A stretch of DNA of 39,465 nt from a virus (IMGVR_UViG_2529293078_000013), one strand, 5' to 3'. Counted from the first letter of the stretch, positions 1 through 28,317 are shown. Translations and numbers: made by a program. The notes: generated from the sequence alone by a model not told the origin.

Positions 1-95
1 GGCACCGACAGCCAAACCGGTATCCTCAAGGGTCATCCTGAAAGGTTCTGTGTTGTGAGATGCGCGTGAGATGCGCAGAATATAGCGCGGCGATT

Positions 96-165
96 TTTTT
101 GATACCGATTTGCATTTCATTTGATACCGCTGAAAAACGCCGATACGCAACTTATTTGATACTAA
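96..165. repeat. Right-end (attR) cluster of three putative transposase-binding repeats, closely spaced
   Basis: TTTGATACC at 98-106 and 120-128, TTTGATACT at 155-163; GAAAAACGC element at 132-140 recalls the CGAAAAACGC of Mu end sites. Confidence 0.6.
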
Positions 166-208
166 ATCGGCGCTTTTCTTTTGAGTTTTAGAATGAGTTT
201 TTAAGCGC

Positions 209-946
209 TCATTCACTCTCTTTCAAACCAGTTTTAACTGTTTGTGGTTTTGGGTAAGGCTGGACTTTGAATAGCTTTGTGTTGAGGCGTTTTCTGGCCC
301 TCTTGTTCAGAAACCGGATGTAACGAAACTGTCGGAACTTATGAACACTGGCTCTGTCAATATTAGCCCTCAGATGTTCACCTCGTTGTCCGCCTCGTTT
401 AATGGCATTCCTGCAAATCTCGTGATACCACTCGCCATCAAGTTCATAGAATATTGATTCATGGCTGCCTACATAATCAAAATTGCTTGCCTGATACACG
501 ACACCAAGACAGCCACAACGCTCATCTGCAAACGACTGAACCCACTGTACCTGCGGATAAAGCTGCCTGATTAGCTTGAGCGCGTAACTGATTGCCCTTG
601 ATTCGGAGTTTCTCGGCATACAGTCATGCAGCCATAGCCGGTTAAGCTCCATATATTCTCGGTTCTGCGTACCCGTTACGACGCGTGCACCACTGTTTGG
701 GTTAAGGGCGTAACCCCATTGCATTACGCCAACAAGTTCCCGTTCTGAAAATATGCCCAGATGAAGGTAGGAGTTATTTACGAAACGGTGGCTGTAATGT
801 TTATTGACGATGACCAGTCTGGCCAGCCAGCAACTTATTGTCTCAACCCGCAACTCACGGGAGCCATAACCAACGATATTGTCGTTATAGCGAATAAGTT
901 CAGGCGTGCTGATGATTCGGGATGTGACTTGCTTTCTGTTCCCCAC
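209..946 (-). CDS. mom: Mom-like DNA modification protein, called from synteny (last gene before right end, overlapped by com)
   Basis: 245-aa ORF whose start overlaps the 3' end of the com ORF by 47 nt; rightmost gene, downstream of gin. Identity rests on position, not on recognised motifs. Confidence 0.55.
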
Positions 947-1100
947 GACAGGATTTCCTTGTGTATGTGGGGTGCTCTGTGGCGCTCGGAGATGTGATTT
1001 GATTGAGGGTTTTACAGCGCGGACATTTTACTTCCAGATAACTGAAACTGGCCCGTGCCAGTAGCTTATTGCAGTGTCGGCACCGTATGTTTCGATACAT
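900..1100 (-). CDS. com: Com-like zinc-finger translational activator of mom (the six-frame ORF extends to 1145; start at internal Met 1100 preferred)
   Basis: Motif [10 protein letters not shown]...VKCPRCK matches the Mu Com CxxC...CxxC zinc finger as I recall it; overlaps mom start. Confidence 0.75.
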
Positions 1101-1145
1101 GACCGCATAACCTCCTGCTTTGTTGTTGATGCCTTTCTCATGCAA

Positions 1146-1290
1146 TCGATCGACAAAAACGATCGATTCGATTTGTTTAATTGATACAACAAATAGATTG
1201 AAAAGTCATCAACAATGATTCAGGGAGGTGATTATTTACTTAAAGAAAACGAAGAGTTAGGTGGTGAAAACGATCATAAAATGATCATTT
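1146..1290. promoter_or_regulatory. com-mom upstream regulatory region with a cluster of Dam GATC sites
   Basis: Four GATC sites at 1148-1151, 1161-1164, 1272-1275 and 1283-1286, in palindromic contexts (ATCGATCGA; TGATCATAAAATGATCA); AT-rich. Confidence 0.4.
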
Positions 1291-1679
1291 TATTGACTTT
1301 TTATACAGTGAAGGTAGGATCACGCGTATATGTAGTATGTTTCAAATCAACAGGATACTACATAAAAGTGAAACCCAGCATAGCTGGAACTATGCTGGGT
1401 CAATCTGTAAAAACTTGCATCAATGCTTTACTTCGAGCTCGTGGCGTATCCTATGATATTCCCCGGTCTCCTGTAAAGCAGAGATGCATAAAAAGGAGAT
1501 CTTTATCATGGATGAAAGAGCCTGTTTGCCCTGCCTGTAAGACTCCCTTACAGCTCATCTATCGCCGTTCTCGATCTCAAAATGGCAAGACATACAAACC
1601 CAAAAATGCTTCCTGTTTCAGGATGCTGATATGTCCTGCCTGTTCTCCCAGGAGGGAAAATACACAAAACGTGCATTAA
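1215..1679 (+). CDS. Hypothetical plus-strand protein; C-terminal 55 aa form a two-CPAC zinc ribbon. Likely real start at 1512 (AGGAGA at 1494-1499)
   Basis: Only ORF in a 570-bp stretch lacking minus-strand ORFs; C-terminus CPACK...(x25)...C...CPAC; stop lies 10 nt before the bidirectional hairpin at 1689-1708. The N-terminal 100 aa are doubtful. Confidence 0.35.
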   Translation: MIQGGDYLLKENEELGGENDHKMIILLTFYTVKVGSRVYVVCFKSTGYYIKVKPSIAGTMLGQSVKTCINALLRARGVSYDIPRSPVKQRCIKRRSLSWMKEPVCPACKTPLQLIYRRSRSQNGKTYKPKNASCFRMLICPACSPRRENTQNVH

Positions 1680-1688
1680 CAAACTCAC

Positions 1689-1708
1689 CCGGCAGGGAAA
1701 CCTGCCGG
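1689..1708. terminator. Perfect 8-bp stem / GAAA-loop hairpin between convergent genes (putative bidirectional terminator)
   Basis: CCGGCAGG-GAAA-CCTGCCGG; sits between the stop of the plus ORF (1679) and the stop of the minus 81-aa gene (1718). Confidence 0.5.
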
Positions 1709-1717
1709 TCGGTATTG

Positions 1718-1963
1718 TTACATCATAGTACCGTCAGTTCCGGGCTGAACCGGCTCTGGTTGCTCTACGGGTTGAGGATCATTTTCCGTGCTGTTTTCAG
1801 CCGGAGAACGGCCAACCATTCGGGCCAGCACTTCATCAACATATGCGTCGATTTGTGCCTCAAAATCCTTGCGAACCTGCGCCTTCAGCACGCGGTTCAC
1901 TTCTTCAGAATAAAGTGCCTGTTTGACAAGCTCTTCAGTAACCGTGCCTTTAATCTCTGGCAT
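1718..1963 (-). CDS. Hypothetical 81-aa protein, helical N-terminus with acidic Pro/Glu/Gln-rich tail
   Basis: Protein-like composition; AAGGAGA Shine-Dalgarno 7 nt upstream of ATG; second gene of a two-gene minus-strand operon. Confidence 0.6.
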   Translation of the reverse strand: MPEIKGTVTEELVKQALYSEEVNRVLKAQVRKDFEAQIDAYVDEVLARMVGRSPAENSTENDPQPVEQPEPVQPGTDGTMM

Positions 1964-1998
1964 GAATATTCTCCTTTTGCAGGTATATTGCCCCGTTA

Positions 1999-2181
1999 TC
2001 AGAGCGGGGTCGGGTCGTTTGGGGATGACGGTGCCTGTGCTGTTTTACTGAGTTTTTCAGCTGCCGCATCATCAATTTTACGGCGAATATAATTTCTGAT
2101 GACCTTATAACCACCGCTCACCAGATATAACGCACTGACCACAGCGCAGAAATAAAGCAGCATTGTATGAACGAATGTCAT
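1999..2181 (-). CDS. Hypothetical 60-aa small membrane protein (one predicted TM helix followed by a basic segment)
   Basis: Hydrophobic stretch LLYFCAVVSALYLVSGG then RNYIRRK; immediately upstream of the 81-aa gene. Confidence 0.5.
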   Translation of the reverse strand: MTFVHTMLLYFCAVVSALYLVSGGYKVIRNYIRRKIDDAAAEKLSKTAQAPSSPNDPTPL

Positions 2182-2294
2182 ATAACCTTACCTTTGATAT
2201 TGACTACATAATTCGTTATCGGGTAAAAACATCGAAGCGACTGATAACCACTCCTTCGGGAGTATTTTTATTTTCCTTTATGGGTTAGGTAGCT

Positions 2295-2329
2295 CCCGCC
2301 AGCCATATCATGACCGGCGGGATTTTTTT
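2295..2329 (+). terminator. GC-stem hairpin followed by T7 run; intrinsic-terminator-like, oriented for plus-strand transcripts
   Basis: CCCGCC...GGCGGG stem (2295-2300 / 2316-2321) followed by TTTTTTT (2323-2329); abuts the stop of the 682-aa gene. Confidence 0.35.
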
Positions 2330-4376
2330 ATTCTGTTACCGCTTTTTTCACTTCCACCACAATGCTGTCAATCAGCACCGGGTAAGTTGCATTTTTTGTG
2401 ATATCCGTTACGCGGAGTTTGTCCACCGGGAAAGTTCCTACTGGTGACTGCGTCAGGGTAAACGCGGCACCATCCTGACCATCAATAACCGGAATAACCT
2501 GAAGGCTGTTATTTCCTGCAAAACGGAAGGCCAGCGTATGCCATTCATTATCAAATGCACCAAAGGTTCCCAGTTTCTGGTTATTTGTTGCCACTTTTGC
2601 ATTGTGGTACATCACATTCAGGTCTTTTGCGTCTGTCTGGATGTAGAACGATGCCAGCAGATTATTCCCTGCATCCCCTGTCAGGGTGACACCCTGCGGC
2701 AGAGAGGAAACCGGCCAGTAAAGCCCCATGACATACTGGTTTGCCACCAGGTCGCCAGGTACTTTAAAACGACAACTGATTAAACCACCATTTTTCAGCA
2801 GTTCAGCACCAGTACCGGCATCATGATCCAGATACCAAGATGATTTACCTGTTTCCTTGGTCAGTTTCATTGCCTTACCACCTGTGCCTCCTGCATCACT
2901 GATAATTTCAGCTTTACCGCCAGCCGGCTCCCAGCCCTGGGCTTTCAGATTTCCTTCTGACTCACTGACACGATAAGACAGCAGTGTTGTGGTTACTGCT
3001 TCAGTTTCTGAAGGTGACGGCACTGGTGCTTCAGTTTCAGAAGATGGAACATCGGCTTTTACTGTGGTTCGCCCCGCATGAGTCAGAACTGCCGTGGCCA
3101 GACGGTCGGAAATAATCCCACGACGTGCCCATGAACTGAAATGGCTGGCCCGGTCCGCAGATGTCCAGGTGGCGGCACTGTTACGCCACGTTGAGCCGTA
3201 ATAACCAATGGATTCAATATCCGGGTCTTCTGCCGGATTGTTGGTGGGTACATTCGCGTCATTTTCATCTGTCATTAATGGAACGAAATGAATGTTTTTA
3301 TCTGTTTTGTTTTTGTAGCCGCCATAGATTGCCTGGTATGCCGGTTCATTTTTCTGTTTCCAGAAATACGTGGTATCGCCACAAATCCACGGAACGCCAG
3401 CAGCACTGCCACCGGTACACTGTTCCGCCTGTTCAGCCAGGTCTGCGCGGAATTTTTCCACCATCGCCAGAAACAGCGCGGAATGCTCCGTCGGCTTCGC
3501 ATCAATATCAAACTCGCCCTGCATCCACACCACAGCAAGCAGGCGGTTTTTCGGGTTCTTCGCCAGTGCCGCTTTTGTCCGGCTGATTAAGTCCTTATAC
3601 AGCGGCTTATCCACACCCCAGCGGGCTGAGTCCTCTGAAGCACCCGTGCTGTCACTGTACGTGCCGTCAGCACCCGCCGTGAATGCAGAACCACCACGGC
3701 AGCAGGGAACCAGCAGAATCCCCGCATCTGCCGGAATAAACGGCAGCAGTTTTTTGGCAATGTGAAGCCCCTGACCCACGGTGCCATATTGCCCTTTAGC
3801 CACATCCGCTTTCGGGTGATTTTTTCCACTCATATCCTGCACATCATGCAGACAGTGGTCGGCCAGAATGATGTCGTTATACTGACAGGCTTTACCTCCC
3901 GGCGTGACTGTACTGCGACGGGCTAACTGCATAATACGCGGTTCGGGGCGGTCATATGTCTCCGGCAGTGGCAGACCTTCACCGTAAGCCATACCGTTTG
4001 ACTGACCAGCAAGAACCACCACGTAATACCAGGAAGGGGAGCTGGAAGCAGTTTCATTTCCTGACGGACGGGTATGTGTTTCAGCATTATCCCAGTCTGA
4101 CGGTTCAGCAGTACCGGCAACATCAGCACTTAACGGAATGACCGCACCAATACCCGCTCCGGTAATTTCCACACTCGGATCACCGGATACTGGCCTTACC
4201 CACAGGCAATCCCGTGTATTAAAACTGATGAGACAGTCAGCAAATGTCATTCCTCCTTTTGTTTCGGCCGGAGGAAAGGGAGCCTCAAGAAATGCCGCTG
4301 TACCACCGGAAACTTTAACGGTAAAGTTTCCGGGCATTGATGATAGTTGAACCCATTTGGACGTCATAATATTCAT
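2328..4376 (-). CDS. nanS-p: Prophage NanS-p-like sialate O-acetylesterase (SASA/SGNH-type) with C-terminal lectin-like domain; cargo gene
   Basis: Central region (LAGQSNGMAYGEGLPLPE, VPCCRGGSAFTAG, WMQGEFD, RRGIISDR) closely matches E. coli NanS/YjhS as I recall it; a Pro/Thr/Glu linker and a C-terminal domain follow. Confidence 0.8.
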   Translation of the reverse strand: MNIMTSKWVQLSSMPGNFTVKVSGGTAAFLEAPFPPAETKGGMTFADCLISFNTRDCLWVRPVSGDPSVEITGAGIGAVIPLSADVAGTAEPSDWDNAETHTRPSGNETASSSPSWYYVVVLAGQSNGMAYGEGLPLPETYDRPEPRIMQLARRSTVTPGGKACQYNDIILADHCLHDVQDMSGKNHPKADVAKGQYGTVGQGLHIAKKLLPFIPADAGILLVPCCRGGSAFTAGADGTYSDSTGASEDSARWGVDKPLYKDLISRTKAALAKNPKNRLLAVVWMQGEFDIDAKPTEHSALFLAMVEKFRADLAEQAEQCTGGSAAGVPWICGDTTYFWKQKNEPAYQAIYGGYKNKTDKNIHFVPLMTDENDANVPTNNPAEDPDIESIGYYGSTWRNSAATWTSADRASHFSSWARRGIISDRLATAVLTHAGRTTVKADVPSSETEAPVPSPSETEAVTTTLLSYRVSESEGNLKAQGWEPAGGKAEIISDAGGTGGKAMKLTKETGKSSWYLDHDAGTGAELLKNGGLISCRFKVPGDLVANQYVMGLYWPVSSLPQGVTLTGDAGNNLLASFYIQTDAKDLNVMYHNAKVATNNQKLGTFGAFDNEWHTLAFRFAGNNSLQVIPVIDGQDGAAFTLTQSPVGTFPVDKLRVTDITKNATYPVLIDSIVVEVKKAVTE

Positions 4377-4466
4377 CCTGTTCCTGAATAAACAGAATTA
4401 TCATATCCACAGACCGATAAACGCCATTTTGCGTTAATTCAGTAAAGGCCCAACAAAGGGAGCGTC

Positions 4467-5027
4467 TTATTTTTCCGAAACGCTCGCAGGATAATAACGA
4501 TAAAGGGTTGAAAGGCCGATATCAAAAATAAGTGCCACCTGTCTTCGACTGACACCCCCGGCCAGTAAACGCCCGACCTGCTCGTATTGTTCCTGCGTGA
4601 GACGACGGGGTCTGCCGCCGGTTCGTCCCCTTTCACGGGCAGCTGCAAGACCAGCCCGTGTCCGTTCGACAATTAATTCACGCTCCATTTCTGCCAGCGC
4701 ACCCATTATGTGAAAAAAGAAGCGCCCCATGGGGGTTGACGTATCAATGTTGTCAGTAAGACTACGAAAATTTATCCCCTGTTGCTGTAATTCATCTGTC
4801 AGCGCAACAAGGTGGCGCATACTGCGCCCCAGCCTGTCCAGTTTCCAGACCATCAGTGTGTCACCGGGTTTTAGTTTCTTCAGTGCCCGCTTCAGTCCCG
4901 GCCGCTGTGTCGTTTTACCACTCATTTTGTCTTCAAAAATCTGCTCACATCCTGCACATTCCAGCGCATTTCTTTGTAAACCGGTGTTCTGGTCATTTGT
5001 TGATACGCGTATATAGCCAATCAGCAT
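4467..5027 (-). CDS. gin: Serine recombinase / DNA invertase (Gin/Hin/Pin/Cin family)
   Basis: MLIGYIRVSTNDQNTGLQRNALECAGCEQIFEDK... is near-identical in pattern to Mu Gin; adjacent to the invertible segment. Confidence 0.9.
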   Translation of the reverse strand: MLIGYIRVSTNDQNTGLQRNALECAGCEQIFEDKMSGKTTQRPGLKRALKKLKPGDTLMVWKLDRLGRSMRHLVALTDELQQQGINFRSLTDNIDTSTPMGRFFFHIMGALAEMERELIVERTRAGLAAARERGRTGGRPRRLTQEQYEQVGRLLAGGVSRRQVALIFDIGLSTLYRYYPASVSEK

Positions 5028-5081
5028 GTATTTACCTTCCTTAAAAAGAGGTGGAAAGGCCTTTTAAAGCAGATATACGGC

Positions 5082-5107
5082 ATCCCTGAAACCTCGGTTT
5101 ACGGGAT
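5082..5107. other. gix-like recombination site, gin-proximal boundary of the invertible segment
   Basis: AAACCTCGGTTTACGGGA matches the centre of the Mu gix site; 13-bp core TCGGTTTACGGGA recurs inverted at 6458-6470. Confidence 0.65.
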
Positions 5108-5452
5108 ACTGTAAACAGGGCCGCGAATGCCCTGCCATCGAACGGAACGGCTGTTGCAGCGAATAAACTCGCCACTCCAAGAAATATTAATGGTGTCCCA
5201 TTTGACGGAACGCAGGATATAAATATTACATCGGGGATGACGCAGTCTGTGGCTGACTCACGTTATGTTCAAAGCATTCGAAGAGGTTCAAGGTCAACGA
5301 TTGGAATGCAATATAATATTTTTGAAGTTCCTGACGGATGCGTACTTACAGGGCTTGATGTCGCTGGTGATGGTAATGCAACGGTAACCGCATATTATCG
5401 ACCTGTTCAGTTTCTGATAGATGGTTCGTGGAAAACAGCTTCCAGCGCATAA
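5090..5452 (+). CDS. Sv': promoterless alternative tail-fibre C-terminal segment (no start codon; expressed only after inversion, fused to the constant part of S)
   Basis: Frame open from the TGA at 5087-5089; encodes NLGLRDTVNRAANALPSNGTAVAANKLATPRNINGVPFDGTQDINITSGMTQS..., colinear with S residues about 175-230, then diverges; ends YYRPVQFLIDGSWKTASSA versus S YYRPVQIYINNAWRTVSSV. Confidence 0.7.
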   Translation, partial: NLGLRDTVNRAANALPSNGTAVAANKLATPRNINGVPFDGTQDINITSGMTQSVADSRYVQSIRRGSRSTIGMQYNIFEVPDGCVLTGLDVAGDGNATVTAYYRPVQFLIDGSWKTASSA

Positions 5453-5531
5453 AAGTGCAGTAGTTCAAAAAACAGATTATCTGAATAAATATATGATGAT
5501 TTTGTCTTTTCAACAAAAACAAGGTGAAATA

Positions 5532-6053
5532 ATGGAGCTTATTAACGTAAAACGATATTACCCGGAACACAAACCCTATGGTGAGGATGTTCAGTATTTC
5601 CAGAGTGAGGACGGAAGGGATTTTTATGAATCTATCCCGCTTTTCACAAAGAAATACAAACTCTGTATTTCGCCTGTAACGGGTATTATCTGCTCTGTTG
5701 CTGAAGATGTCTCTGCTTTATATCCGGCAGGTTTTACTGTTGTTGAAGTGGACGAACTGCCGGAAGGTGTGAATATTGACGGTAACTGGCAGTGTTCTGA
5801 TGGCCTGATATCAAAGGTGCCGGTAAACTGGAAGACGGTTGCTGAAAAGCGTCGCTCATCGCTGCTCCAGGAAGCCAACGAAACCGTGGATGACTGGAAA
5901 ACAGAATTAAAACTGGACATGATTAGCGATGAAAATAAATTACAGCTGACGCGCTGGATGGCGTATATCCGACAGCTTAAAGAAATGCACTTTAATGATA
6001 TTGCCAGTGAGGGGCATTACCAGGCGATTCCCTGGCCGGAAAAACCGGAATAA
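5532..6053 (+). CDS. Tail fibre assembly protein (Tfa/U'-like), partner of Sv'
   Basis: MELINVKRYYPEHKPYGEDVQYF... is a typical Tfa N-terminus; AAGGTGA RBS before ATG at 5532; lies inside the invertible segment. Confidence 0.8.
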   Translation: MELINVKRYYPEHKPYGEDVQYFQSEDGRDFYESIPLFTKKYKLCISPVTGIICSVAEDVSALYPAGFTVVEVDELPEGVNIDGNWQCSDGLISKVPVNWKTVAEKRRSSLLQEANETVDDWKTELKLDMISDENKLQLTRWMAYIRQLKEMHFNDIASEGHYQAIPWPEKPE

Positions 6054-26337: not shown

Positions 26338-26628
26338 CTACCCCCTTGCGCGTGGTTTCTTCACACCCGGAACGGTGGCGCGGCCTTCCGCCACATCCTG
26401 ACCCCGGCCGGTCAGTTCAGCGATGAAATAACCATTAACGAGCGTGCGCTTACGCACCAGCCCCTGCTCGGCAAGCCAGGCAATATGAGTATGAACGGTG
26501 TCGCGGGACACGCGGTGACCGTAATCATCCAGACAGTCCTGGAGCACGGATTCACCCAGTTCGCCGTTGTAATCCGCCAGCGACCGCAGAATGACAAGAC
26601 GCTGATCTTCAGTAATGAAATCACTCAT
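26338..26628 (-). CDS. Small winged-helix-like protein (Mu gp26-position)
   Basis: 96-aa ORF coupled to its neighbours. Confidence 0.5.
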   Translation of the reverse strand: MSDFITEDQRLVILRSLADYNGELGESVLQDCLDDYGHRVSRDTVHTHIAWLAEQGLVRKRTLVNGYFIAELTGRGQDVAEGRATVPGVKKPRARG

Positions 26629-26933
26629 TGTGTTTTTTTCCTTACCGCCTGCTCCAGCAGCAGTTCGTTCTGATAGGAGACAGAGCGGAGCGTGGCGTTC
26701 GTGGTTTTCAGTTCACCCCGCAGGGTCACGATTTCCACATTCAGACGGTTGACCTCGGCTTCTGTCGGCAGTGACGACAGGCGGGTTTCCACCTTCTCAA
26801 CGCGGTCGGAGAGTTTTTCAAAGGCCTCGCGGGGGACAAACGTTTTGCGCATCAGCGCCATGAATATCCCGCCAGCGGTTGCCGTCGCCGAAAGGATCGG
26901 CACAACATAATCTTTAACGATGCTGACCCACAT
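26625..26933 (-). CDS. Membrane protein at the Mu gp25 position (possible releasin-type lysis protein)
   Basis: 102 aa with N-terminal hydrophobic helix then coiled-coil-like region, at the end of the lysis cassette. Confidence 0.5.
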   Translation of the reverse strand: MWVSIVKDYVVPILSATATAGGIFMALMRKTFVPREAFEKLSDRVEKVETRLSSLPTEAEVNRLNVEIVTLRGELKTTNATLRSVSYQNELLLEQAVRKKTQ

Positions 26934-27141
26934 GACGGGCCTCCATGATGTTCTGGCAGTTCACACAACGGATGGCATCCGGCACAGCAACAAGACGTGC
27001 GGCGGGGATCTCTCCGCCACAGTCCGCGCAGACACGTCTGCCCGGAGCATCCATTGCCCGGCGCTTACGTGTCAGCCGGTTACAAAGGGCGCGTTCTGAT
27101 CCCCGCTCCATCACAGCCTGAGCACGATCTGAATCATCCAT
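26914..27141 (-). CDS. TraR/DksA-type C4 zinc-finger protein (start at internal Met 27141 preferred)
   Basis: CADCGGEIPAARL...RCVNCQ zinc-finger motif. Confidence 0.6.
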   Translation of the reverse strand: MDDSDRAQAVMERGSERALCNRLTRKRRAMDAPGRRVCADCGGEIPAARLVAVPDAIRCVNCQNIMEARHVGQHR

Positions 27142-27151
27142 ACCTTTTTCC

Positions 27152-27523
27152 TTACTTCGTCTTTCCTGCCGGAACAGCAGGCGTTCCGGCCATATCAGTA
27201 AATTCATGTTGTCGCCGCGCCTCCAGACGACGAATACTGGCCTTGTCCACGTTGCAGTTCTTGATCACCGCCAGCAGTTGCAGGTTGTAAGTGACCGATG
27301 CCCCAAACGTGAACGGCTCCGGCGCAGGAGGGACCAGGCAGTCAGCCAGCCATTCAGCGGGGATCGGCACCGGCTTCACAGGCACGTATTTCACAGACGG
27401 CCCGGCGCACCCGATCAGCCACATCATCAGGAACAGGGGCAGAGGCCGCAGGCACTGCCTCCAGCGACCGGCGGACAACGCTCTGCTGCCCCTCGCTGTG
27501 CTGAATGTTCTGTTGTTTTTCAT
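27152..27523 (-). CDS. o-spanin (Rz1-like outer-membrane lipoprotein), start uncertain; overlaps the i-spanin gene in another frame
   Basis: Lipobox LIGC followed by a Pro-rich mature sequence (PSVKYVPVKPVPIPAE...PPAPEP). Confidence 0.45.
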   Translation of the reverse strand: MKNNRTFSTARGSRALSAGRWRQCLRPLPLFLMMWLIGCAGPSVKYVPVKPVPIPAEWLADCLVPPAPEPFTFGASVTYNLQLLAVIKNCNVDKASIRRLEARRQHEFTDMAGTPAVPAGKTK

Positions 27524-27875
27524 TCGTGGCCGCCTCACTGATTTGTGAAATGAGTTGCAGGGTGTGCTGCTGATTTGCCAGCACCTGACGCGCCTCATCC
27601 CGCTCACGCACAAGCACCTGATTATTGTCTTCAAGGCGCTGCGTCTTCTGGTGCATTCCCCATATAGCGGCAACCAGTACAGCGATAATCCCCAGCGCCG
27701 CCATGCACGCCCCGGCAATCAGGGCCGGTAAGGCATTATTCACCGCAGCCACAGGACACCCCGTAACAGCAGTACCGCACACAGCAGCGCTATCATGAGC
27801 GGTCGCCAGAAGCGGTTCAGACTTTCGGCAAGTCGTAGCGACATAACCATTCATCCGCCGAACGGCGGGCCTCAA
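27354..27875 (-). CDS. i-spanin (Rz-like), start uncertain
   Basis: Hydrophobic TM segment ALIAGACMAALGIIAVLVAAIWG followed by a Gln/Glu-rich coiled coil. Confidence 0.5.
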   Translation of the reverse strand: MRPAVRRMNGYVATTCRKSEPLLATAHDSAAVCGTAVTGCPVAAVNNALPALIAGACMAALGIIAVLVAAIWGMHQKTQRLEDNNQVLVRERDEARQVLANQQHTLQLISQISEAATNEKQQNIQHSEGQQSVVRRSLEAVPAASAPVPDDVADRVRRAVCEIRACEAGADPR

Positions 27876-28317
27876 GGCCGGGGAGTTTCACCCCCTTTGA
27901 ATAAATCCAGCGGATATACTGCTTACAGGACGCGGGCATCTGCCCGGCATTGATCAGGCGCAGAAGCGTGGAGTTGCGAAAGTTCGTTTCACCGGCCCAG
28001 AAGATCCACGAAGCCAGCGCCACCGTCTGACCACGGGTAAGCGGCACCTGAACACGCCGATCAATGGCCGCAAAGGCCCATTTCATGTCCTTTTCCAGTA
28101 GTTCCAGGCATTCTTCATCTGTCAGGGTCATACCCGGTTTCACATCCGGGCCGGTATGGCCGTAACAGATGGTGGGTGTACCGGTGGGATCGATATACGT
28201 GGAGTTTTCTTTCCCTTCCCAGTAACCGGTGTAATGCGTGGCAATCGTGAACGTCCCGGCACCGGCCAGAACAAGGGCAATCAGCTTTTTACGCAGTGGT
28301 GCGGGGAGTTTTGGCAT
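27817..28317 (-). CDS. SAR endolysin (lysozyme-like) resembling Mu Lys
   Basis: N-terminal signal-anchor LIALVLAGAGTFTIA; CYGHTGPDV and AAIDRRVQVPLT match Mu Lys motifs as I recall them. Confidence 0.8.
   Translation of the reverse strand: MPKLPAPLRKKLIALVLAGAGTFTIATHYTGYWEGKENSTYIDPTGTPTICYGHTGPDVKPGMTLTDEECLELLEKDMKWAFAAIDRRVQVPLTRGQTVALASWIFWAGETNFRNSTLLRLINAGQMPASCKQYIRWIYSKGVKLPGLEARRSADEWLCRYDLPKV

Follow-up and report, generated by a model that had tools for sequence, protein, structure and literature searches.

Between com and the invertase gene gin of a Mu-like prophage, the viral sequence IMGVR_UViG_2529293078_000013 (39,465 nucleotides (nt), referred to as the window and numbered from its first letter) carries a nanS-p-like sialate O-acetylesterase gene, followed on the same minus strand by two small genes of the families DUF1378 and DUF826. 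Convergent to these, and next to the mom control region, lies a small zinc-ribbon gene on the plus strand (Table 1). We consider it likely that this stretch is mosaic accessory DNA in which two independent units, the esterase-DUF1378-DUF826 block and the zinc-ribbon gene with its own control signals, are joined at a shared terminator hairpin. Overall, the locus appears to be mosaic phage cargo of an ordinary kind that offers a few leads for experiments. The initial annotation had placed the two small minus-strand genes and the zinc-ribbon open reading frame (ORF) in a single functional module within an AT-rich insert absent from Mu.

Table 1 Features of the com-gin interval of the window (columns: feature, position, strand, remarks)
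mom	209-946	-	
com	ends at 1100	-	
mom regulatory region	1141-1190		GATC-rich, upstream of com; aligns with the GATC region between gin and com of Mu
Annotated ORF of 154 amino acids (ECs_4996, NP_313023.2)	1215-1679	+	judged an annotation artefact, promoter and leader fused to the zinc-ribbon ORF
Predicted sigma-70 promoter	1293-1320	+	TTGACT-16-TAGGAT, consensus scan
Conserved 11-bp leader hairpin	1373-1400	+	acting strand not settled
Conserved leader blocks and Shine-Dalgarno site	1401-1507	+	AAGGAG at 1493-1498
Zinc-ribbon gene	1512-1679	+	55 amino acids, isoelectric point (pI) 10, two CPxC pairs (CPAC...CPAC)
Perfect 8-bp GAAA hairpin between convergent stops	1689-1708		probably a bidirectional terminator
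DUF826 protein (ECs_4995)	1718-1963	-	81 amino acids, acidic, long helix, disordered tail; PF05696, 2.8e-15
DUF1378 protein (ECs_4994)	1999-2181	-	60 amino acids, one N-terminal transmembrane helix, RRK basic junction; PF07125, 1.2e-38, full length
Predicted antisense small RNA unit	2200-2330	+	TTGACT 2200-2205, 18-nt spacer, TAAAAA 2224-2229, about 95 nt, terminator
Terminator hairpin of the antisense unit	2294-2322	+	followed by seven T at 2323-2329, which overlap the nanS stop codon
nanS-p-like sialate O-acetylesterase	2328-4376	-	682 amino acids, SASA and DUF6645 (Pfam); first gene of the captured block
gin	4467-5027	-	

The 1.25 kb around the small genes are 100% identical to the Mu-like prophage Sp18 of E. 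coli O157:H7 Sakai, which is inserted in sorM, and identical copies of this stretch are also present in the same prophage of many other Shiga toxin-producing E. coli genomes. At least 80% of the 1.25 kb was found in 168 of 5,426 complete E. coli genomes, and scans of species-representative genomes returned nothing. The window begins at the right end of the prophage and reads leftwards from there. In Mu the start of com lies 94 nt from the gin stop codon, whereas 3.3 kb separate the two in Sp18, which confirms the absence of the insert from Mu. Alignment with Mu places its breakpoints near 1190, with the GATC-rich mom control region as the left edge, and near 4466, so that the cargo of about 3.3 kb includes the nanS-like gene; the limits proposed initially (1215-2330) cover only its left third. 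The description as AT-rich applies to about 1100-1400 (34% GC) and fails for the remainder (41-55% GC). The positions given for the three ORFs, their convergent stops on either side of a hairpin and their character as accessory cargo of proteins without known function were all confirmed.

Presence and absence of the genes were scored by tblastn in a matrix of 10 locus types (loci are designated by L numbers). When viral contigs were scanned with the alignment of the zinc ribbon, four divergent loci emerged, all on Mu-like contigs of 36-40 kb; in each of them the zinc-ribbon gene adjoins com and is transcribed away from it. Two of them (L054 and L056) hold mom, com and the zinc ribbon, and lack the esterase, DUF1378 and DUF826; L057 holds com, the zinc ribbon and gin only; and in L055, where com and the zinc ribbon are present, the esterase follows in directly convergent orientation and the DUF pair is absent. 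The reverse combination, with the DUF pair present and the zinc ribbon absent, was found in L031 and L004. Because the zinc ribbon and the DUF pair occur without each other, the three ORFs do not form a co-inherited module, and the proposal of a functional three-gene module has to be abandoned in favour of partners that assort independently among Mu-like phages.

The two minus-strand proteins, none of which had been recognised initially, belong to defined Pfam families. The DUF1378 protein matches PF07125 with 131.5 bits (cut-off 25) over profile positions 1-59 of 59, and the DUF826 protein matches PF05696 with 56.7 bits (cut-off 25) over residues 1-52, which correspond to its helical part; additional matches were obtained to phrog_494 (3.5e-34) and phrog_311 (6.6e-30), respectively, all four families being of unknown function. 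As had been described, the 60-residue protein has a single hydrophobic stretch (residues 3-21, Kyte-Doolittle 19-residue maximum of 2.02), which is followed by the basic residues K26, R29, R33, R34 and K35. From this arrangement we predict that the protein is a small anchor of the inner membrane, N-terminus outside and C-terminus inside the cell. The picture of an 81-residue helical protein with an acidic tail also proved accurate: the DUF826 protein has a pI of 4.3 and a charge of -8.5, and its AlphaFold model consists of a short helix, a long helix (residues 20-50) and a disordered acidic, proline-rich tail, as would suit a soluble, acidic, helical protein of the cytoplasm. Its gene has the strong ribosome-binding site noted before, with AAGGAG 7 nt ahead of the ATG.

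A separate minus-strand operon was not supported, as a consensus scan found no promoter between the esterase gene and DUF1378 and none for a two-gene operon. Since no promoter was found and the 35-nt gap between DUF1378 and DUF826 is free of terminators, the pair is most simply read as the distal part of the esterase transcript, and DUF1378 and DUF826 are most likely co-transcribed with the esterase gene. Between the two Mu-like lineages that carry the pair, the ratio of non-synonymous to synonymous substitution rates (dN/dS) is 0.22 for DUF826 and 0.32 for DUF1378, which shows that both genes have been kept functional in the Mu context by purifying selection. The second of these lineages (6,381 index blocks, more than 1,000 contigs) has the order gin, esterase, DUF1378, DUF826, com and mom with the same gin and com junctions, and a different ORF in the slot beside the mom promoter.

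The same three families occur in the same order and orientation in the late regions of lambdoid phages, including 933W, VT2-Sakai and their relatives (nanS-p, DUF1378, DUF826, S holin). There, Q and tRNA genes or the Shiga toxin (Stx) genes are followed by the nanS-p esterase, DUF1378, DUF826, a class II holin, lysozyme and Rz; this order was found in an E. coli mouse isolate, the PhiR12 phages, VT2-Sakai and prophages of Citrobacter and E. coli, while in one further E. coli prophage an ORF without a Pfam match replaces DUF826. By tblastn, DUF1378 was detected in 309 phage records, mostly of Stx-converting phages. The label "head completion protein" attached to DUF826 homologues of the PhiR12 phages is unsupported; the gene lies between DUF1378 and the holin there as well. 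In the window the three genes follow each other on one strand with short gaps as in the lambdoid block, and the esterase stop codon is followed by the same terminator-like hairpin. Between 4028 and 2344 the esterase gene and lambdoid nanS-p are about 70-77% identical in DNA sequence, and the alignment extends into DUF1378, whose protein shares about 52-66% identity with its lambdoid homologues. As the similarity of the esterase gene runs on into DUF1378, we conclude that esterase and pair arrived as one block and that the holin was left out.

The Sp18 block differs from the Stx/lambdoid segment in residing in a transposable phage of the Mu type, where it lies between gin and the mom promoter, and in having no adjoining holin, endolysin or Rz; after DUF826 there is a terminator and then the convergent zinc-ribbon gene instead of class II holin and endolysin. 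A further difference concerns the N-terminus of the esterase, where about 116 residues (4029-4376, minus strand) replace the DUF1737 domain of lambdoid NanS-p proteins and find no equivalent there; this N-terminal region is common to the second Mu-like lineage. In the scenario we favour, the block of esterase, DUF1378 and DUF826 would have been copied from the late region of a lambdoid or Stx phage and placed between gin and the mom promoter without the holin. A late-operon block of the Stx type, composed of a sialate esterase and two small companions, would thereby have been captured by a transposable phage and become portable to any chromosomal site.

The plus-strand unit, which contains two CPAC motifs and ends at 1679, had been recognised correctly as a zinc-ribbon ORF, although not as an independent gene, and this shorter model describes the locus better than the annotated ORF of 154 amino acids. 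Relatives of the long ORF were found at this locus of Mu-like prophages only and do not keep its frame: the commonest has 135 amino acids with the distal third in another frame, and others have 137, 153, 97 or 106. In a DNA alignment all other alleles read ATG GAT AAA GAG CCT GTT TGC CCT GCC TGT and thus encode a zinc-ribbon ORF of 56 amino acids from an ATG that corresponds to position 1508 of the window, 9 nt past AAGGAG. In the Sakai allele a single additional G at 1514 destroys this ancestral start, leaving a 10-residue peptide (MDERACLPCL), and provides a new ATG in frame at 1512, at a distance of 13 nt from the Shine-Dalgarno site; as a side effect the zinc-ribbon frame is joined to an open frame upstream. 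That upstream frame looks non-coding, because it is disrupted by a 1-nt deletion at 1246 in three of nine comparable alleles, the ATG at 1215 has no Shine-Dalgarno site, and the part across the leader hairpin encodes unrelated residues in different alleles. Most of the few changes within the zinc-ribbon ORF itself are silent when read in its own frame and alter the amino acid when read in the alternative one. Thus, the ORF of 154 amino acids is a fusion of the Sakai lineage caused by a 1-nt insertion, and the conserved coding unit is a basic zinc ribbon of 55 or 56 amino acids. For ECs_4996 and 205 database copies the annotation can be corrected to a zinc-ribbon gene of this size with a promoter and a leader.

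An exhaustive HMMER search of 1.84 billion representative proteins recovered only four relatives of the zinc-ribbon protein, one of which (43% identical) keeps MDKE, both CPxC pairs, GKTY.PK and CSP. The AlphaFold model (predicted local distance difference test score of 79.7) is small with four beta strands. A fold search with this model against PDB and BFVD gave nothing at E <=0.001, the best matches being generic zinc ribbons; a search of the zinc ribbon and the DUF826 profile against solved structures by sequence gave nothing, and Pfam returned sub-threshold generic zinc-ribbon matches only, with no match to Com (PF10122). Given its strong basicity (pI 10, net charge +8.5), the protein can reasonably be inferred to bind nucleic acid. 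Com, a zinc-finger protein that activates mom translation, is likewise small, basic, equipped with four cysteines and encoded beside the mom promoter. In contrast, the resemblance between the two is confined to 13 residues around CPxCKT with negligible pairwise similarity, and their genes are transcribed in opposite directions.

Upstream of the zinc-ribbon gene, the predicted promoter keeps its place and hexamers in L054 and L057 (TTGACT-16-TAAGAT), with diverged spacer and flanks, and in L056 a TTGACG-16-TATAAT promoter occurs with unrelated spacer and upstream sequence; ATATGTAGT lies downstream of the promoter in the window, L054, L057 and L056. Between the window and L054 the leader (1357-1507) is 78-83% identical at the nucleotide level, while the coding region reaches only 60%. 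The leader contains a hairpin that had been described initially as a perfect 10-bp stem at 1373-1398, which is real and perfect, albeit slightly longer with 11 bp at 1373-1400. Its folding energies are -19.0 kcal/mol on the plus and -21.5 kcal/mol on the minus strand (z -4.7 and -5.9, none of 200 shuffles as good). The stem occurs in at least five perfect alleles that carry changes on both sides, namely ACCCAGCATAG/CTATGCTGGGT, GGTCCAGATAG/CTATCTGGACC, GACCCGGTAG/CTACCGGGTC, GACCCAGTAG/CTACTGGGTC and GCCCGGCAG/CTGCCGGGC, in addition to two degenerate copies. Compensation was judged from a matrix of arm-swap energies, as MAFFT gapped one arm only and made a column-wise count of covariation unusable; in five of six cases the best partner of a 5' arm was its own 3' arm. 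The hairpin forms a unit with flanking blocks (ACTACATAAA, hairpin, GCATCAATGCT), and several phages have a tandem duplicate of this unit with a degenerate second copy (L004 5208-5370, L055 1508-1665, L056 1099-1255).

The perfect 8-bp GAAA hairpin between the convergent stops was confirmed exactly as reported (CCGGCAGG-GAAA-CCTGCCGG, -18.5 kcal/mol, z -3.5, none of 200 shuffles as good); taken together, both hairpins gave z values from -3.2 to -5.9 with 0 or 1 of 200 shuffles as good. Different compensated stems occupy its position in L004 and L031, and in L054 and L055 the zinc-ribbon gene closes with a canonical hairpin and a T-run. The hairpin at 1689-1708 is thus probably a bidirectional terminator. 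The plus-strand unit would accordingly comprise a sigma-70 promoter, a leader of about 180 nt with the compensated hairpin, a Shine-Dalgarno site, the zinc ribbon and this terminator, and may be regarded as a self-contained small gene typical of the com-mom end in several Mu-like phages. In this respect it resembles phage morons (Juhala et al. 2000, as cited in PMC4104026), accessory elements that are transcribed as units in their own right, each from its own promoter to its own terminator, and it also occupies a slot that varies among related phages; it differs from morons in a leader that is more conserved than the coding region and contains a compensated hairpin. A divergent promoter within the mom control region of Mu, momP2, serves RNA polymerase in the absence of the activator C (PMC3378877), and by analogy transcription from momP2 would enter the zinc-ribbon unit.

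Several points weigh against the interpretation as two independently inherited units of the kind described above. The promoters are consensus matches only, and ECs4994-4996 are not mentioned in any paper, hence expression data for these genes were not found in the literature. In the upstream part of the long ORF, 7 of 15 changes fall on third positions, a mild excess that makes a short upstream peptide possible. The association of nanS-p with the pair is not obligate, as the esterase occurs without the pair in the prophages PP2 and PP5 of enteropathogenic E. coli (EPEC) and in L055, and DUF1378 occurs without nanS-p in phage BUCT708. Purifying selection on the pair in Mu-like phages, far from a class II holin, weakens a holin-specific role. 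Lastly, a small hydrophobic protein with a predicted antisense RNA upstream could constitute an arrangement of the type I toxin kind.

The strand on which the leader hairpin acts invites an alternative in which it would serve on the minus strand, either as a second terminator that keeps read-through transcription out of the toxic com-mom operon or as the terminator of a small RNA of about 75 nt starting from TTTACA-18-TAGGAT (1477-1448). In a scan the hairpin resembles a terminator on the minus strand with a U-rich tail, the fold on this strand is the stronger one (-21.5 kcal/mol), the conserved flanking blocks hold promoter-like hexamers, and mom expression at the wrong time is cytotoxic (PMC3378877). 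However, the T-tail is weak in other hairpin alleles (UCCCUUUAU), the U.G wobbles in the two degenerate copies preserve pairing on the plus strand only, and the hairpin lies downstream of the conserved plus-strand promoter. We regard minus-strand action as possible, but not as what we would expect.

For the DUF1378/DUF826 pair, a late, membrane-proximal accessory function tied to the lysis cassette or the esterase is most likely, and the lysis cassette provides the strongest contextual signal. According to Chamblee et al. 2022 (PMC9239132), the Mu releasin gp25 (DUF2730), which frees signal-anchor-release (SAR) endolysins, adopts an N-out/C-in topology; 4 of its residues are periplasmic, the junction reads RR/RK and the cytoplasmic domain is anionic. 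DUF1378 resembles it in about 4 predicted periplasmic residues, one transmembrane helix and the RRK junction, with the N-out/C-in orientation deduced from the sequence alone. The tail of DUF1378 is net basic, and the anionic cytoplasmic part of gp25 would be supplied by a separate protein, DUF826 (charge -8.5). Such a gp25 split into two chains might tune the release of SAR endolysins or the timing of a pinholin. The association of DUF1378 and DUF826 with a lysis cassette in lambdoid phages also recalls gp25: class II holin and lysozyme genes come immediately after the pair in all lambdoid loci sampled, and in BUCT708 DUF1378 is the last, ATGA-coupled gene of a cassette of holin, lysozyme and membrane protein. 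In contrast, profile comparison revealed no homology to DUF2730 (hhalign 0.4% and 0.2%, and no Pfam match), and the pair moved with the esterase, not with the holin. In Sp18 the pair is 25 kb away from the Mu-type lysis region (26625-28317, minus strand), which comprises a lysozyme gene (27817-28317), a gene for a DksA/TraR-type zinc-finger protein (26914-27207) and a DUF2730 releasin homologue (26625-26933); as this own DUF2730 gene is retained, Sp18 does not depend on the captured pair for releasin function. A role as lysis accessories thus seems unlikely on balance, and the fact that DUF1378 and DUF826 immediately precede the lysis genes in hundreds of Stx phages is nevertheless an experimental lead. 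In the literature a single paper names the two families in this context, as unknown ORFs between nanS-p and S that were left unstudied, and searches for the locus tags of the Stx-phage homologues returned only unrelated papers.

With regard to BUCT708 (vB_SmeS_BUCT708, L008 3474-4153), the DUF1378 homologue has 50 amino acids and is 61% identical; it follows the class II holin, lysozyme and a 176-residue membrane protein, overlaps the preceding gene by ATGA, and has neither an esterase gene nor DUF826 in its neighbourhood. In PP2 (L043 2767-3213) and PP5 (L045 2332-2765) of EPEC E2348/69, where the esterase is present and the pair is absent, the interval is occupied by a pasA or pasC small RNA gene and an 11-codon remnant ORF where DUF1378 would start.

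The pair could alternatively assist the NanS-p esterase, for instance by helping to localise or release it, since the three genes stay together in both Mu-like lineages and are adjacent in all lambdoid loci that have the pair. The separate occurrences in PP2, PP5, L055 and BUCT708 speak against this proposal, the sequences give no mechanistic hint, and we consider it improbable. Equally improbable in our view is a more ambitious combination, in which the zinc-ribbon gene and its structured leader would form an undescribed regulatory circuit at the com-mom end while, in parallel, DUF1378 and DUF826 would be a two-chain analogue of the Mu releasin. In such a circuit the small basic protein, binding RNA or DNA and transcribed away from the mom control region on the momP2 side, could recognise the compensated hairpin and regulate itself or affect how the toxic Mom modification function is expressed. 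Independently of this model, the conserved structured leader beside the mom control region deserves attention as an experimental lead.

Between the esterase gene and DUF1378, the opposite strand carries the predicted antisense small RNA unit. In every lambdoid or Mu-like locus examined, the esterase stop codon is followed by 7-8 A and a GC-rich hairpin with a covarying stem, which on the opposite strand reads as a hairpin followed by U7-8. About 20 nt away from where DUF1378 starts, that strand carries promoter-like hexamers, TTGAC(A/T/G) and TAAAAA separated by 18 nt, in six of seven loci, with L037 lacking TTGAC. This layout recalls PasC, a validated, Hfq-dependent small RNA of 78 nt from EPEC (Pearl Mizrahi et al. 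2021, PMC8550237 Table S6), which ends at the esterase stop codon, and PasA, which lies between esterase and holin in a prophage without the DUF pair (Zhu, Shabalina and Storz 2026 preprint). Like these RNAs, the unit is convergent to the esterase gene, its terminator hairpin with U7-8 abuts the esterase stop codon, and a TTGACA-type -35 element is found at the equivalent place. Unlike in the PasA and PasC prophages, it coexists with DUF1378 and DUF826, and its expression is a prediction. No sequence similarity was detected to PasA, for which a BLAST search with the long form matched its own locus only, or to PasC in a comparison made by eye only. An Rfam scan of positions 1-5200 (E up to 1) yielded only two chance-level matches, and the supplements on Hfq crosslinking in Sakai hold no entry with plain-digit coordinates 5,077,500-5,080,999, a range covering part of the stretch. 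The unit thus appears to share the design and position of PasC, not its family membership. As a predicted PasC-like small RNA gene that would escape sequence searches for Pas RNAs, it represents a further experimental lead.

This antisense unit also bears on the idea that DUF1378 is a membrane peptide similar to type I toxins, controlled by an RNA (2236-2330, plus strand) complementary to its upstream untranslated region. The size of 60 amino acids with a single transmembrane helix would fit, as would an antisense terminator in all loci examined and the promoter-like pair in six of seven, both located in the region upstream of DUF1378. On the other hand, the unit lies 55-150 nt upstream of the ATG and overlaps neither the ribosome-binding site nor the coding region, PasC and PasA share the architecture and occur without DUF1378 in EPEC, DUF1378 is located inside a late operon behind a large enzyme gene, and the protein is unlike Hok, Ldr, Ibs, TisB and other families of this kind. 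Taken together, this makes a type I toxin very unlikely.

The profile and structure searches suggested initially identified the two Pfam families, and the fold searches revealed no known function, with the DUF826 model finding nothing in BFVD. Neither Pfam nor NCBIfam assigned a toxin, antitoxin or defence family, PADLOC returned only a chance-level PbeC match for DUF826 (E = 0.052) and nothing for the other proteins, and searches of PDB by sequence and by fold likewise gave no match in support of such a role. Small genes with a membrane protein among them, a convergent arrangement across a hairpin and a site among prophage accessory genes had suggested a single toxin-antitoxin, superinfection-exclusion or abortive-infection module, but the components assort independently with unrelated genes in the mom-promoter slot of other lineages, the DUF pair, although inherited together, is always found behind nanS-p or in a lysis cassette with a fixed late-operon place beside the holin in lambdoid phages, and the scan gave the pair no promoter of its own, so that this reading is very improbable and one toxin-antitoxin or defence candidate can be struck off the list.

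The slot beside the mom promoter is a variable cargo site. In L031, of the commonest Mu-like lineage, it holds an unrelated acidic, convergent ORF of 86/97 amino acids (5423-5716, minus strand in the locus), and an ORF of 108 amino acids resembling it follows the zinc-ribbon gene in L054 (1605-1931). L004 has a minus-strand ORF of 66 amino acids in this slot. No match to Mom was found in L053, L050, L055 or L057. In L055 (1-1149, minus strand), as in L053 and L050, an ORF of 382 amino acids follows com instead of mom, and its sequence, judged by eye with no domain search, resembles a C5-cytosine DNA methyltransferase.

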